Shown: positions 10,938 through 18,838 of the stretch, piece after piece
Layout: every line of letters begins with the position of its first letter
Position numbering within the stretch: position 1 is the first letter of the stretch
Origin: Candidatus Altarchaeum sp.
Lineage (GTDB): Archaea > Altiarchaeota > Altiarchaeia > Altiarchaeales > Altiarchaeaceae
Direction of reading: 5' to 3'
NCBI GenBank assembly: GCA_018260615.1
Contig: JAGWDQ010000110.1
Span: forward strand, 1-29,361
Length of the DNA: 29,361 bases
Made by a program: the position numbers and the translations under genes
The notes under the pieces: model-generated
Databases searched by the model: none
What the model saw: only the letters and a program-made list of their open reading frames with translations
What the model was told of the DNA's origin: nothing

Positions 10938-13900
10938 TTAATCTGCCTCATTCATTCCATCCTTGAAGTATTTGTCAAATGCACATTTCTCAAACTCTCT
11001 GAATTTACCTACATCCCCGGCACACATAGTAGCCATATATTCTTTATGTACCGGCTCACCGTGAATCTTGAAGAATTTTATTTCCAAATTCACATCAGAT
11101 AAATTTAACAATTCATCTATAAGCGGTTCTGTAGCGTAACATCCAGGGCACATTAGATCACTGAATTCGTAAATTAAAATTTTTCCATCTTTTTTGCATT
11201 CCATCTTATTGTTTATGGTTAAGCTCGCTTTACATACTGCTTTTTGTGTTGGAACCCTTGAACATACATCATCAATTGTCTTTTGGTCACATCCTATAAA
11301 TAATGAAGGGGTGTGGTCAAGTCCTAAATTTGTGGCCAATGCATATTCGGCATTTACAAGACCTTCTTTTTCCTTATTTTTGTAGCAGGTGTAGAACTTT
11401 GCTTTATCTTTTTCAGGAATTACTTCTTTCATACAAGCAGGAATAATTGCAGTTATATTCTCAAATTTAGTTAATTCATTATAAATTTCCGGTGAAAATT
11501 CTGCACATTTTCCATTTACACAGGCATTACTTTTGCATTCATTATTATTTTGACATGCCTCATTAACTTCTTTGAGATGTGTTACTCTACAAACACTATT
11601 TTCGCATATTCCGCTTGCACATTCCGTATTATTTGTGCATGTTTCTTTTTCTTTCTTTTTATCCACGCAGTGTTTTGTTTCATCGCAATATTGACTTGTC
11701 GTATCGCAGTCCTTATCGCTATCGCATTGCATTGCTAATTTCCATATTCTTAAAAATCCGTAGTTATTATCCCATACAAGTTTCCAGTTTTTCAGTCGTT
11801 CCGAAGGATTTTTACACCAGTCGGCATCACACAATCCGTACTGCGCATAACTGTCGGCATGCTCTCCCAAATATAACTTTGTGAACATGTGATTTTGAAA
11901 TTCATTCGGAGCATAAACAAATTCTCGCCACATAGGCAATCCGCAGACCGTTCCCGAAGTATCATCTTTCATAACACACATAATTACATCACCAAATGAC
12001 TGGATTCCGAGTAATGAACCATTGTGATTTTTCTTCCATTCATCCAAAGACATTTCTTCAGTAAGTACTGGAACATCTCGCCCATTATATGCACTGTATG
12101 TTTCTTTATCCGTGTATCCTTGAACAATTATTTTTTTAACATATATTTCTGTTTTATCTGGTTTATTTATATCAACACTACGTTTAGCAACATCAAATTC
12201 TATTTTTGCAAGATAATCAAGTCGTTGTGTTTTGTTCGGAGGATAACTGCAGTAACCAAAATACAATTTGCTAACCTCTTCACTACCTCCGGCGCTGCTT
12301 TTTTCAATTGTATCAACCTTTCCACCAAAACCACATACGCCTAATGCATTTTTGTTTGGATTCTCCGGATTTTTAAGCCATTCTTCGTACTCTTTATCCT
12401 CTTGTTTTGATAAATTTCCCTGTGCAATAAACCGCAGCGCATGATTCTTTCCGATTAATGTATAATCAGTAACAATATACTTTACATTTGGATACTCTTT
12501 TACTAATTTCATTGCTTCGTCTTCTGTCTGATATACTGTAAAGAATCTTGCTACTTCCTGAAGCTGCCAGTGAACTGCCTGTAAATTGTCAATCAATACA
12601 GGTCTTTCTGCTATTGGAGTGATCCAGTGTCCATAATCCCACCATGTTAAAACAATATCCTCTTTATCTGTATTTTCATTAAACCACTGCAATCCCGGCA
12701 TCCACCAGTTTATTCCGCTTCCTATATTCCAGTCACCATCAGCACCCTGATGAAGCATTGTTGTTGACGAATGGAATAAAGGTGAAAAGTAGGGAAGTAA
12801 TGTATTAGTGACCAGTTTGCCTGTAGAATCTGTTGATTGGTAGGTTATGTTATAAATATAAGGAAATACAAATAACGGGATTATAAGCACTGCAAATGTT
12901 CCGATAATTCTCACTCCGTTTAAGTTCTTTTTATTAATTCCTGCAATTAATCCCACAGTAGCACCTAACGCAATAATCCCCAGAACGGAATCAACCCCTC
13001 TTTGAGGTACATTATAATATGCCCACAATCCGGAAATTGCCAAAATTAAAATTATTGCGGCACCCATCTTTCCTCCTTCGGGAGAAAATTTAAGGGTAAG
13101 TAAAAATATAGCAATAATATCAAAAAAGACAAAAAGTATAAATATCAACCATGAATTTGTACTTCCAATCCATGATAATGAAGACGAACCCATCATAACT
13201 ATTACCAAATAATGGAGCAACACTGCTACTCCTATTGGAATTATTGTATGCAACGAAGGTTTTCCCTGCCTGCCTGCAATTAAATAAGAAAGCAATGGAA
13301 TCATTGCCAATCCGTATAAAAATAAAATTCCGTAAGTTGTAAAATCACCCTGGCCTATTTGTTCCGCAATTGTCTTAAAAACGACACCTGATGTAGTAAC
13401 TGATAATGCATCTAAAACAGGATCAAGGAACAGGTCATGGAGAGCAAAAATTCCTATTGCACCAATAACAATAATTCCCCCGCTTACGGCTCCCAAAACA
13501 TTTTTCGGAAGTTTGTTTAACGCATTTTCTATAAACAAATTTATCATTTCAAGTTTGCCATATTTCTTATCTTCATCATATTCTTCATTTGCTGTTATTT
13601 TATCTGACTTTATCAGGAACAATCTTAACATTTCAAGGATTAAAGGAACAACAATAACCGCAGATATGATAAGCATCGCGGTTTTTGAAGGTGAAAATAT
13701 CGGAAGCGCGTTATGTGCATGCAAAATCAGTCCGTTGAACAAAGGAAAAATCATCGGAATTACTATGTATGGCACATGCGAAAATGTATTTTCTTTGTTT
13801 AAAAATTTTGCCAGCGCGTACAAAACAGCAAACAAGCCAAGAGCATAAAGTGCATAAGCAGCATATCCGCTCCAGGCAACAGAGAAAAAGAAAAATGTGA

Positions 13901-14903
13901 TTCCTGCAAGTAATGTCCATTTTAATGACTTATTTTTAATCGCATTAAATATTACATACATCGTTGCAGCCATAAGCATTAGTCCCATTTCACTTGCTTC
14001 GTCACTTCCTGCAATTGACCTTGTACTGTAAAGATAATTAAATCCCAGACAAAACGCACCTATTAATCCGACTAATTTGTTATGCGGGGCATAAGCAGAA
14101 AAAATTTCCCTGAGGAATAAATACATAAAAAGTACTGCAAAGCCGGCCATCAGTCCGCCGAACAGCATCGCAGTATCATACTGGTTGATGCCAAGCGGTG
14201 ATAAAATTTTTGCCGTTGATGCCATAAATACTGCATGTAAATTGAAATTCGTTGAAAAATCAAGCCCGCCGGATGTTTTCCACTGACTTTCAGGAGTGCT
14301 CGCATAATAATCGGGGTCAGTTATTTTCGGATATGTTAAATTATCATAATCCATCACATGTTCGGTCGTATAAGTATTATTAACAATTTTATAATGCCAG
14401 TGACTGTCAAATGCATCACCGCTCGTTAAATAAGGATTTGTTGCTGGGACAAGATGAAATAAAAATACGGAAATAACAACAGCAATCACTGCTGCAACTT
14501 CCTTTGATAAAAATTTATGCACAGATAATACATAAAACAGCAGATAAATTCCAATCACAACTCCAAAAACATTAAAATCACCTGCCATCCATCCGACACT
14601 ATTCATCCCATGATAAGAAAATAATGCCTCTGTAAATATCAGAACAGGAACTCCCATAAGATAATAATTCTTAACTTTTCTGAAATACATATACACAAAA
14701 TAAGAGGACAATATGCCAAGTATTATAAATATGGCTGTAAAGACAATCGGAGGAATTTGATTTGCTCCGGAAACGAATGGTTTGATAATTGCCAGTATAA
14801 ATGTCAAGACCGAAATAATAAATAACGGCTCAATAATCCTCCCGCTAACACCCTCTACCCACTTGTCTAAATTTTTTGATGTTGATAAATTTACTCCTTG
14901 CAT
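10938..14903 (-). CDS. aglB: Oligosaccharyltransferase AglB/STT3 with C-terminal Cys-rich repeats and a DsbA/thioredoxin-like domain
   Basis: Multi-TM N-terminal region with DSHWH, RSIAGSDEASE and TIAEQ; WWDYG at 12630-12644 followed by IDN; about 260 extra C-terminal residues including EFSDLMCPGC. Confidence 0.9.
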   Translation of the reverse strand: MQGVNLSTSKNLDKWVEGVSGRIIEPLFIISVLTFILAIIKPFVSGANQIPPIVFTAIFIILGILSSYFVYMYFRKVKNYYLMGVPVLIFTEALFSYHGMNSVGWMAGDFNVFGVVIGIYLLFYVLSVHKFLSKEVAAVIAVVISVFLFHLVPATNPYLTSGDAFDSHWHYKIVNNTYTTEHVMDYDNLTYPKITDPDYYASTPESQWKTSGGLDFSTNFNLHAVFMASTAKILSPLGINQYDTAMLFGGLMAGFAVLFMYLFLREIFSAYAPHNKLVGLIGAFCLGFNYLYSTRSIAGSDEASEMGLMLMAATMYVIFNAIKNKSLKWTLLAGITFFFFSVAWSGYAAYALYALGLFAVLYALAKFLNKENTFSHVPYIVIPMIFPLFNGLILHAHNALPIFSPSKTAMLIISAVIVVPLILEMLRLFLIKSDKITANEEYDEDKKYGKLEMINLFIENALNKLPKNVLGAVSGGIIVIGAIGIFALHDLFLDPVLDALSVTTSGVVFKTIAEQIGQGDFTTYGILFLYGLAMIPLLSYLIAGRQGKPSLHTIIPIGVAVLLHYLVIVMMGSSSLSWIGSTNSWLIFILFVFFDIIAIFLLTLKFSPEGGKMGAAIILILAISGLWAYYNVPQRGVDSVLGIIALGATVGLIAGINKKNLNGVRIIGTFAVLIIPLFVFPYIYNITYQSTDSTGKLVTNTLLPYFSPLFHSSTTMLHQGADGDWNIGSGINWWMPGLQWFNENTDKEDIVLTWWDYGHWITPIAERPVLIDNLQAVHWQLQEVARFFTVYQTEDEAMKLVKEYPNVKYIVTDYTLIGKNHALRFIAQGNLSKQEDKEYEEWLKNPENPNKNALGVCGFGGKVDTIEKSSAGGSEEVSKLYFGYCSYPPNKTQRLDYLAKIEFDVAKRSVDINKPDKTEIYVKKIIVQGYTDKETYSAYNGRDVPVLTEEMSLDEWKKNHNGSLLGIQSFGDVIMCVMKDDTSGTVCGLPMWREFVYAPNEFQNHMFTKLYLGEHADSYAQYGLCDADWCKNPSERLKNWKLVWDNNYGFLRIWKLAMQCDSDKDCDTTSQYCDETKHCVDKKKEKETCTNNTECASGICENSVCRVTHLKEVNEACQNNNECKSNACVNGKCAEFSPEIYNELTKFENITAIIPACMKEVIPEKDKAKFYTCYKNKEKEGLVNAEYALATNLGLDHTPSLFIGCDQKTIDDVCSRVPTQKAVCKASLTINNKMECKKDGKILIYEFSDLMCPGCYATEPLIDELLNLSDVNLEIKFFKIHGEPVHKEYMATMCAGDVGKFREFEKCAFDKYFKDGMNEAD

Positions 14904-14984: not shown

Positions 14985-15019
14985 TGGTTTTTGGTTTTAT
15001 TCTGGTTTTTGGTTTTATT
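14985..15019. repeat. 18-bp-period tandem repeat x2 overlapping the uppS stop codon
   Basis: TGGTTTTTGGTTTTATT at 14985 and 15003. Confidence 0.75.
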
Positions 15020-15680
15020 TTCCAAAATTTCTTTTTGTTTTATTATAATCCTCCAGAATTTTGAGCAAATCGTCCTTTTCTAATTCGGGCCATAGTTTAT
15101 CAACAAAATAAATTTCCGAGTATGCCCCCTGCCACAGCAAAAAATTACTTATGCGATGCGCACCTGTCCTTATAAATATATCAGGATATTCTTTAATGAG
15201 CAATTTATTTCGCACATTTTCTTCATTAACCTCCTCATTGCTGTTCTTAAATTTTTTTATAACTTCCATAATTTCCTGCCTTCCCCCGTAAGCAACCGCT
15301 AAATTTACCTTATGTTTATCGTATTTTGCTGTCGCATCTTCCAGCTCCTTCAATTTCTCAACAAATTTTTTACTTTTTACCGCATCTAAATTTCCGCAGA
15401 TTTTTACACACACCTCATTTTTGTGAATTCTATCGTCGTTTATGGTTTTATCAATTTCCTTTATTAAAATTTTGTTTAAAATTTCCAGTTCCGCTGCACT
15501 TCTGTTCCGGATATTTTCCAGAGATAAAGCATACGCGGTGATACTCTCAACATCCATTTTGCTGCACCATTCAATAAAATCCCTGAATTTATTCATTCCG
15601 ATGGCGTACGCTTCTTCAAAGCCCTTTCCTTTCTTTTTTGCATACCTTCTGTTTCCATCAGGTGTTATAGCAATATGCAT
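15015..15680 (-). CDS. uppS: cis-prenyltransferase (polyprenyl diphosphate synthase, lipid carrier synthesis)
   Basis: HIAITPDGNRRYAK, YALSLEN, AVAYGGRQEI, RISNFLLWQGAYSE and RNFGK. Confidence 0.93.
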   Translation of the reverse strand: MHIAITPDGNRRYAKKKGKGFEEAYAIGMNKFRDFIEWCSKMDVESITAYALSLENIRNRSAAELEILNKILIKEIDKTINDDRIHKNEVCVKICGNLDAVKSKKFVEKLKELEDATAKYDKHKVNLAVAYGGRQEIMEVIKKFKNSNEEVNEENVRNKLLIKEYPDIFIRTGAHRISNFLLWQGAYSEIYFVDKLWPELEKDDLLKILEDYNKTKRNFGK

Positions 15681-17527: not shown

Positions 17528-17669
17528 TTAAAATTTCGGAATAATCTCTTTTAAAAATTTATACTTTTTTATAAGTGGTTTCAAATCATCAAGCAATTTC
17601 TTAAATGTTGAGCAAGTTCCTCTGTTTTGATATGTGCCTTATTAATTCAACACGCTCGTAAATCATTGA
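17528..17669 (-). pseudogene. Decayed duplicate of the last ~47 codons of the HD-domain gene
   Basis: Aligns with 18984-19127; translates as SMIYERVEL...TEELAQHLRNC/DDLKPLIKKYKFLKEIIPKF* with two 1-nt deletions (142 vs 144 bp). Confidence 0.9.
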
Positions 17670-18838
17670 GGTATCCACTTGACTATAAACTTACGATTTG
17701 CTTTTACTTCTCCGAGTTCAAATTTATATTGTGTGTAATTAATAGTATTCTCTTTTGAATATTTTTTTCTATCATTACGCAAAGGTATGGATCCTCCTTC
17801 ATGATACATCTCAATAGATGGTTCCTCCTCAAAATTGTAACCTCGCTCAAAATTTACAACAATTTCAAGATTATCATAGTCGTTTAGTGTCTCCCAGGTA
17901 TATGTGGCGCAATCTACATTTTCCTTGAGAGTTCCATTCTTTAATTGTTCTTTTTTAAATGGAAATACATTATCCGAACTCCATTCCCATCCGTATTTTA
18001 TGGTGGTGCCTTCTGGTATGTTCCCTTCACGACTCTTGAAACAGATGAAAAAATTTATTTTATCATCTGTCGTTTCATCATTTATAACTTCTACTTTGTC
18101 TACGAATATGTTGTCAGGTGACAAAACTCTCGCATAAAATGTTTCATCAAAAAATCTTTTTTTGTCAACAGCATCTGTGTAGTTTAATGATTTCAGTGGT
18201 TTCAGGTTTGTATCTTTAAAAGAGCATTTTTCTAACCAAAATCCTTGTTTTCTACATTTAAACTTATCTGATAATGTCTTAATTGTTACAGTTATTTCTT
18301 CAATTGCATGACCATTGTTATAAATAGTTAATTTTGATATATTATTTATAATTTTATGATATCCTTGAAAGATTGGTTTTTTATAAATGCTTTCTGCATA
18401 TTCTTTTATGCTGTTTCTCAATTTTTTAAGATATCCACCATCTTTATCTTTACCTATTATCTTTGATCTGTCAAATGGTACATAATTGTAATCTCTTGGT
18501 GTCATTCCAAAGTCCATTATATTATTCTCAACAAATATTAAATAGTCCTTATCAAGAGCGACTGCACTACCAATTTCACTGTATATCCACGGAGATGAAA
18601 TACACCCTTTATCAGTTTCGTATTTTTTAGTTAGAATAGCACAAAATATAGAATTTGCACTTATTTTTGGGATAATTTTTTTTATCAGAGAATTCGCTTC
18701 AGGTGATTCAGCATCTTCACATTCAAAATACTTTTTTAATTCATCAACAAACCACTTAATAATTTTTTCATCTTCCTCACTAAAACTATAACTCACAAAT
18801 ATTCCTTTTTTATTATTCTTCTGCAATTCCATAGTCAC
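17663..18838 (-). CDS. TIR-like / nucleoside deoxyribosyltransferase-like N-terminal domain fused to an unrecognised beta-rich C-terminal domain; candidate defence protein
   Basis: GIFVSYS at the N-terminus, IFCAILT, and SPWIYSEIGSAVAL with the Glu at the TIR/NDT catalytic position; 391-aa ORF. Confidence 0.65.
   Translation of the reverse strand: MTMELQKNNKKGIFVSYSFSEEDEKIIKWFVDELKKYFECEDAESPEANSLIKKIIPKISANSIFCAILTKKYETDKGCISSPWIYSEIGSAVALDKDYLIFVENNIMDFGMTPRDYNYVPFDRSKIIGKDKDGGYLKKLRNSIKEYAESIYKKPIFQGYHKIINNISKLTIYNNGHAIEEITVTIKTLSDKFKCRKQGFWLEKCSFKDTNLKPLKSLNYTDAVDKKRFFDETFYARVLSPDNIFVDKVEVINDETTDDKINFFICFKSREGNIPEGTTIKYGWEWSSDNVFPFKKEQLKNGTLKENVDCATYTWETLNDYDNLEIVVNFERGYNFEEEPSIEMYHEGGSIPLRNDRKKYSKENTINYTQYKFELGEVKANRKFIVKWIPQ

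Follow-up and report, generated by a model that had tools for sequence, protein, structure and literature searches.

A probable natural circular permutant of a DsbA-like domain at the C-terminus of an AglB-type oligosaccharyltransferase of Candidatus Altarchaeum

The window, a contig stretch of 29,361 nt, belongs to a draft genome of Candidatus Altarchaeum sp. that comprises 148 contigs and is 87% complete. All positions are given for this stretch. It carries a gene for an oligosaccharyltransferase of the AglB/STT3 type with an unusual C-terminal extension: cysteine-rich repeats are followed by a module with the hallmarks of a DsbA-like thiol:disulfide oxidoreductase, whose halves stand in swapped order (Table 1). 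Taken as a whole explanation, residues 1135-1321 of AglB are quite probably a natural circular permutant of a Thioredoxin_4-type DsbA domain. The module physically ties disulfide chemistry to a protein glycosylation enzyme; its catalytic role, the disulfide staples proposed below and the link to glycosylation are inferred.

Table 1. Features of the AglB locus with their positions in the window. Residue numbers are those of the AglB protein.
Feature	Position	Strand	Residues	Basis
AglB/STT3-type oligosaccharyltransferase gene, C-terminal extension of cysteine-rich repeats and putative permuted DsbA	10938..14903	(-)	1-1321	1321-aa open reading frame
WWDYG catalytic motif of AglB	12630..12644	(-)	754-758	read in sequence
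Three cysteine-rich repeats between AglB and DsbA module, 12 Cys, C-x5-C-x4-6-C-x4-5-C	11502..11738	(-)	1056-1134	read in sequence
Putative circularly permuted DsbA-like (Thioredoxin_4) domain, 187 residues	10941..11501	(-)	1135-1321	
'Late' DsbA half, placed first: alpha4-alpha6 of insert and connector, cis-Pro loop, beta4	11292..11501	(-)	1135-1204	profile, Pfam and 4k2d matches
T1198-P1199, predicted cis-proline loop (H-T-P-SLFI, residues 1197-1203)	11307..11312	(-)	1198-1199	aligns to (T/V)-P of canonical DsbAs
Linker of 35 residues, joins old C- and N-termini	11187..11291	(-)	1205-1239	family alignment
'Early' DsbA half, placed last: beta2, CPGC, alpha1, beta3, alpha2, alpha3	10941..11186	(-)	1240-1321	profile and Pfam matches
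Active-site motif C1252-P-G-C1255, context ILIYEFSDLMC-P-G-C	11139..11150	(-)	1252-1255	read in sequence
Cis-prenyltransferase (UPPS/dolichyl-carrier-type), upstream gene	15015..15680	(-)		Pfam Prenyltransf, E 1.7e-59

The order of the two halves is the central observation. T1198-P1199 precedes CPGC by 53 residues, and the protein ends 66 residues past CPGC. The first-pass annotation had placed the TP loop at residues 1198-1199 and the CPGC motif late in the protein; its residue numbers and coordinates are exact. It had also read the late half of a DsbA as standing ahead of the early half, and a sequence search of the PDB, Pfam scans of the separate halves and a purpose-built profile concur. 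For these comparisons the 187-residue module was numbered on its own as a fragment, in which C39 and C160 correspond to C1173 and C1294. Fragment 99-179 aligned with residues 47-129 of DsbA2 from P. aeruginosa (4n30) and fragment 28-73 with residues 146-192 of the same chain. Fragment 3-75 matched residues 100-173 of the B. pseudomallei DsbA 4k2d (E 0.004). A separate alignment of each half to the DsbA and Thioredoxin_4 hidden Markov models had been suggested, and both halves matched: the first aligned with positions 107-146 of the 165 positions of Thioredoxin_4 (E 0.012), the second with positions 13-85 (E 6e-4) as well as with DSBA 2-54 of 191. The upstream half resembles the late part of DsbA.

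A profile of canonical DsbAs was built from 24 single-domain relatives. It aligned fragment 30-73 with its positions 145-188 (36.6 bits) and fragment 94-177 with positions 41-127 (58.3 bits). The two halves cover the parts of the DsbA profile once each, without overlap and without gap; in relatives, the late half matches positions 125-192. The break lies at about profile position 127-133, the alpha3/alpha4 loop of the helical insert, and it is this loop that forms the C-terminus of AglB. The canonical linear order of beta-CxxC-alpha-beta, insert and cis-Pro-beta-beta-alpha is not kept, as profile positions 145-188 precede 41-127; the module is therefore a permuted variant and no canonical member of the DsbA family. 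Judged from these alignments, the swapped order exceeds chance. The 35-residue linker contributes beta1 and stands where most of beta5/alpha7 would be.

Conventional annotation sees half a domain. The whole AglB protein scored 25.7 bits against Thioredoxin_4 (gathering threshold 23.2), with coverage of profile positions 14-85 of 165 only, and 17.3 bits against the Pfam family DSBA, below its threshold of 25.6. The gene is nevertheless the sole DSBA-family match in the genome. Permuted DsbAs are under-counted in this way, and the sole detectable DsbA-like protein of this archaeon is missed or called partial.

A conserved set of 13 sequences, referred to as family A, shares the module. Three protein settings are represented: fusions to AglB, fusions to FKBP, some of which also have a thioredoxin domain, and forms that stand alone on a membrane anchor. 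The AglB-fused form recurs in G001, an independent genome of the same genus (1322-aa frame, 51% identity), in P0002 (1220 aa, 69% identity, on a 31-kb contig) and in the fragments P0003 and P0155. Among the FKBP fusions, the lipoprotein-like P0153/P0004 consists of FKBP, a small thioredoxin, a second FKBP and the permuted DsbA; P0045 combines FKBP and permuted DsbA. The membrane-anchored stand-alone forms are P0156 (from G041, a genome of another taxonomic family in the same class), P0157 and P0022. A search for free-standing and tandem homologues had been recommended at first reading, and it returned these three proteins together with tandem arrays of several DsbA domains. P0156 and P0157 retain a longer beta5/alpha7-like stretch in the linker, and by their sequences the stand-alone forms look nearer to a tandem-junction ancestor. 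A CPxC or CxxC motif is present in all 13 members (CPGC, CPYC, CPFC, CPEC, CQYC or CDHC). The proline of the TP loop is invariant in the six of six members aligned there, preceded by threonine or valine, in P0045 by leucine. In a tree of the 'un-permuted' columns, family A formed one clade with a support of 100 in the Shimodaira-Hasegawa-like approximate likelihood ratio test.

A second group, family B, comprises membrane-anchored stand-alone permuted DsbAs of about 209 aa (P0117, P0160-P0167, P0170, P0183, P0187 and P0198). The completeness of P0117 rests on 12 relatives of equal length. In contrast to the domain in the window, family B proteins lack the extra cysteines, retain the full beta5/alpha7 and stand alone. 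Their canonical neighbours among the search matches were mostly from bacteria of the candidate phyla radiation. Separate origins of the permutation in families A and B were considered and not retained: the families stand apart on free trees, yet a single clade was not rejected (approximately unbiased test, p 0.38). When species-representative genomes were scanned, close permuted relatives came from the genus of the window only, and the other matches were canonical or tandem DsbAs. Of the 61 genomes of the phylum, only G000 and G001 gave the full module; the stand-alone copy of G041 was detected via its early half only.

These homologues bear on the explanation that a mis-assembled, frameshifted or truncated gene mimics swapped halves. 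The genome is a draft in many contigs and several relatives are fragments (P0003, P0154), as such an artefact would have it. The gene itself ends in a TAA stop codon and is followed, after a normal intergenic gap of 25 nt, by a Mur-ligase/FolC-like frame, so no frameshift conceals a missing half. G001, P0002 on its long contig and the other architectures all have the halves in this order and end at the same point; the same C-terminal loop ends 13 sequences of family A and 15 of family B. This conservation of the arrangement in homologues excludes truncation and assembly error, and an artefact is scarcely credible.

The structure was predicted with an AlphaFold2 monomer run on the fragment and four relatives. 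The model shows a confident single domain, with a mean predicted local distance difference test (pLDDT) of 87.2 and a predicted template modelling score (pTM) of 0.74; four of the five models reached at least 77. In fragment numbering, the late half comprises the helices 4-14, 19-27, 30-41 and 46-58 and the strand 66-69. The linker forms the helices 73-81 and 87-93 and the strand 94-96. The early half consists of strand 107-114, helix 119-132, strand 137-143 and the helices 152-162 and 167-180. The order of elements is alpha4, alpha5, alpha6, beta4, a short helix, beta1, beta2, alpha1, beta3, alpha2 and alpha3. CPGC is framed by strand 107-114 and helix 119-132, and the helical insert is assembled from fragment 19-58 and 152-180. 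The best Foldseek match was 1UN2, the PDB entry of cpDsbA Q100T99, an engineered circular permutant of the E. coli DsbA, with 193 aligned columns, a template modelling score of 0.53 and a probability of 1.0. Canonical DsbAs aligned over about 86 columns. The full-length superposition on 1UN2 implied that the TP loop is close to CPGC in the model. A structure prediction had been called for at the outset; with one domain in the model and a profile covered once, the data support the option, offered in the first-pass annotation, of a natural circular permutant that forms one fold.

Some properties of the model detract from this assignment. It is a prediction from only five sequences, and the PDB on which AlphaFold2 was trained includes 1UN2. 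Little is left of beta5 and alpha7 when the module is fused to AglB, and the pLDDT drops to 64 near fragment residues 141-150.

The two halves might also pair between chains in a domain-swapped dimer or oligomer, or be what a decayed tandem array has left behind, without any activity. Among the long matches, proteins with several DsbA domains in tandem are the most frequent and the query runs across their domain junctions, and a swapped assembly is outside the scope of a monomer model. However, the halves are exactly complementary in the profile, the 35-residue linker is long enough for pairing within one chain, and the packing of the AlphaFold2 monomer is confident by its pTM. The engineered 1UN2 has the same connectivity and folded into a monomeric-type structure. 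Decay is excluded by the retention of the catalytic residues and of 10 cysteines over 31-70% identity and three protein settings. Together, interchain pairing and decay are improbable, and a circular permutant closed within one chain remains the preferred reading.

The cysteines of the module give a further view of the permutation. All 10 are conserved across family A; eight fall into scorable profile columns and are present there in 12-13 of the 13 members, and the remaining two are aligned in the linker. Two belong to the CPxC motif, two form the insert pair (C1173 and C1294) and six are family-specific. The presence of the insert-domain cysteines had been noted from the sequence, and it held in the alignment. 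Over 453 domain units outside the family, cysteines in the two columns (profile 154 and 110 for fragment C39 and C160) co-occur nearly without exception: 127 units have both cysteines, 323 have neither and just three have one only. Such co-occurrence marks the structural disulfide that is known from the insert. After permutation, a disulfide C1173-C1294 would tie the N- and C-terminal segments together.

The family-specific cysteines are located at the cut and at the new join. Profile columns 123, 140, 49 and 186 hold cysteine in 12-13 of 13 family A members and in at most two of the 453 other units. C1157 is just past the new N-terminus and C1307 just before the new C-terminus, so that both flank the cut. 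The linker has four family-specific cysteines, C1205 and C1236 at its two ends and C1214 and C1224 inside. P0022 lacks both inner linker cysteines and keeps the outer two; because exactly the inner two are lost, the pattern suggests the pairs C1205-C1236 and C1214-C1224. Most likely, the family-specific pairs would act as staples that stabilise both places of changed connectivity, the cut and the join.

Circular permutants usually arise when a domain is duplicated in tandem and the two outer halves are then lost. The most likely origin of the module would be such a tandem DsbA duplication, after which both outer halves were lost. The query aligns unbroken across the domain junctions of tandem multi-DsbA proteins, for instance with residues 560-717 of P0005. 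In P0203, P0204 and P0206 (343-352 aa), an early half comes after one full DsbA domain and ends at profile position 135, in the same loop; these proteins could be intermediates of duplication and truncation. The high rank of tandem DsbAs in the searches was discarded as evidence for ancestry: their scores sum over several domains. The first-pass annotation had also offered the middle of a tandem ancestor, trimmed at both ends. As a route of origin this is consistent with the data; as an alternative to a permutant it did not stand.

The host protein is recognised by its catalytic core. Pfam AglB_core-like matched the 1321-aa frame with 31.3 bits (cut-off 27), and residues 720-847 matched the AglB/STT3 structures 3vu0, 6s7o and 3waj. 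NCBIfam archaeo_STT3 gave 52.8 bits against a cut-off of 450, a partial match to the core only, and the membrane part had no match to Pfam STT3. No second AglB_core match was found in the genome. About 13-17 hydrophobic segments were counted, all before residue 684, and no membrane segment was found after this residue (Kyte-Doolittle maximum 0.93). Since no hydrophobic stretch follows, residues 685-1321 are predicted to share the side of the AglB catalytic domain. By homology to the solved AglB, PglB and STT3 structures, this side is taken as the outer one. The cysteine-rich repeats have a weak similarity to Dickkopf_N (E 0.0055, below the cut-off) and are kept in the orthologues of the same genus, G001, G002 and G003. 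The whole C-terminal extension has 22 cysteines.

The upstream cis-prenyltransferase is encoded on the same strand, and this neighbour fits a glycosylation locus. Further upstream, a 391-aa protein (17663-18838 (-)) has an N-terminal TIR_2 match (E 4e-5, below the cut-off) and may be a defence gene. The GC content is about 33%; genomes of Ca. Altiarchaeum hamiconexum have 32-33% (PMC4975002), which lends the assignment to this lineage loose support.

Sister AglBs end in a different oxidoreductase. In the genomes G002 (L175) and G003 (L174, 928-1239 (-)) of the same genus, a thioredoxin-like domain of about 100 aa with a CPHC motif and a G-I/V-P-Q-F loop replaces the permuted DsbA. The swap point is directly after the third cysteine-rich repeat. 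The AglB of G004 (L176), from another taxonomic family, likewise ends in a small CPHC thioredoxin-like domain. This small domain is present in 38 of the 61 genomes of the phylum, mostly in proteins of about 250 aa, and in P0153 it stands side by side with the permuted DsbA. The C-terminal oxidoreductase is retained while its type is exchanged among the orthologues, and for this reason the fusion of AglB and an oxidoreductase seems to be kept under selection although the type changes. From its distribution, it looks like a lineage trait.

The small CPHC module was also encoded elsewhere in the genome of the window, on contigs C44 (9540-10580) and C68 (20306-20602), with two copies in a frame of 510 aa and one in a frame of 599 aa. 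Besides the permuted DsbA, the cell would therefore have further external thioredoxin-fold proteins. On contig C100, L001 (1459-2244 (-)) codes for a membrane-anchored protein of 261 aa; its Thioredoxin_4 match is confined to the late part (profile 81-165), and it lacks a CxxC. The gene is flanked on one side by a glycosyltransferase-like gene and on the other by the gene of a large membrane protein that contains GGCENK repeats.

The permuted module retains all catalytic elements, CPGC and the TP loop. Following the AglB catalytic domain and the cysteine-rich stalk, it would lie outside the membrane. By analogy and from the domain swapping among orthologues, it would probably exchange disulfides with secreted proteins near the glycosylation site. 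In doing so it would act like the subunits Ost3, Ost6, TUSC3 and MagT1, a coupling that is proposed with moderate confidence. The full proposal is more tentative and its chance is put at somewhat below even: a single-chain archaeal oligosaccharyltransferase with a built-in oxidoreductase, a permuted DsbA here and a small CPHC thioredoxin in sister species, may hold or oxidise cysteine-bearing substrates at the glycosylation site in the manner of Ost3/Ost6/TUSC3. It would be the first prokaryotic coupling of glycosylation and disulfide chemistry, evolved independently and on a staple-stabilised natural permutant.

Several observations speak against this proposal. No homologue of DsbB, VKOR or DsbD/CcdA was detected in the 87% complete genome, so no known system recycles the active site, and no gene resembling a recycling partner adjoins the AglB gene. 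Altiarchaeales have been described from anoxic subsurface environments (PMC4975002), where routine extracellular disulfide formation is not expected. The link to glycosylation would be one of analogy and domain architecture. The other fusion partners of the module are prolyl isomerases, which would also suit a general folding role. The missing recycling system, the anoxic setting and these partners weigh against the module being a simple oxidase.

The permuted DsbA might accordingly fold and yet ignore AglB substrates. It could be a general folding catalyst of the periplasmic side that happens to be tethered to AglB, an oxidiser of the 12-cysteine stalk or of its own disulfides, or a redox-inactive binding module. 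The same module alone on a membrane anchor (P0156, P0157, P0022) or with FKBP (P0153, P0045) points to general folding more than to glycosylation; the missing recycling partner and the many cysteines of the AglB extension itself also favour a role of this kind. Against it, AglB orthologues in at least two taxonomic families keep a CxxC thioredoxin-fold domain at the same position, and the strict conservation of CPxC and the proline loop speaks against an inactive module. Such a role apart from AglB substrates is rated unlikely, though it carries real weight beside the proposed action on substrates at the glycosylation site.

In G060, a genome of the same phylum, L090 (130-2706 (-)) encodes a protein of 858 aa with a canonical DsbA and a C-terminal cyclophilin-type prolyl isomerase. 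It adds to the cases in the phylum in which a disulfide enzyme is joined to a proline isomerase.

The module is of interest as a natural counterpart to a result of protein engineering. In two sequence families, evolution has cut DsbA in or near the loop that was opened in the crystallised permutant, which marks this loop as the permissive site. The family-specific cysteine pairs around cut and join hint at the way in which a permutant becomes stabilised after the rearrangement. AglB has one or the other of two unrelated CxxC modules at the same position, and this points to selection for a connection of N-glycosylation with disulfide chemistry outside the eukaryotes. Searches of the literature for a permuted DsbA or thioredoxin fold of natural origin yielded engineered work and unrelated papers only, and a search for an AglB that carries a thioredoxin domain gave no relevant paper.

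Among the known proteins compared, 1UN2 is the closest in connectivity: the termini of cpDsbA Q100T99 are located in or near the same alpha3/alpha4 loop as those of the domain in the window. The linker of 1UN2 is reportedly short and Gly-rich. Unlike this man-made protein, the domain in the window is natural, shares 16% identical amino acids with it, belongs to the Thioredoxin_4 branch and resides within a membrane enzyme. It has a 35-residue linker with four cysteines for most of beta5/alpha7 and extra cysteine pairs at the cut. For the permutant library approach, PMC13552848 and PMC9763678 cite Hennecke, Sebbel and Glockshuber (1999, J Mol Biol 286:1197).

Canonical DsbAs, such as P. aeruginosa DsbA2 (4N30), C. 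diphtheriae DsbA (4PWP) and B. subtilis BdbD (3EU3), share with the module the CPxC motif, the (T/V)-P loop, the cysteine-paired helical insert and the sequence similarity of each half. A rearranged DsbA-like domain is also known from UGGT, whose TRXL1 has the helical bundle ahead of the thioredoxin core (PMC7687155). Its order is four helices, beta-alpha-beta and alpha-beta-beta-alpha: the bundle has moved as a whole, which differs from a circular permutation through the insert. Unlike the domain in the window, TRXL1 is without a CxxC, non-catalytic and eukaryotic.

The proposed functional parallel is with the eukaryotic oligosaccharyltransferase. Ost3p and Ost6p (TUSC3/MagT1) are thioredoxin subunits that face the active site of the STT3B type; they are thought to slow oxidative folding and to keep sequons accessible (PMC8191290). 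The likeness is a thioredoxin-fold domain with a CxxC beside the STT3/AglB catalytic subunit, on the non-cytoplasmic side. No search gave a sequence match of the domain in the window to the Ost3/Ost6/TUSC3/MagT1 family; the resemblance is functional only and implies no homology. Each of Ost3, Ost6, TUSC3 and MagT1 is a subunit by itself, in which a plain thioredoxin fold is joined to a four-helix membrane anchor, whereas the archaeal domain is of the DsbA type, permuted and fused to AglB.

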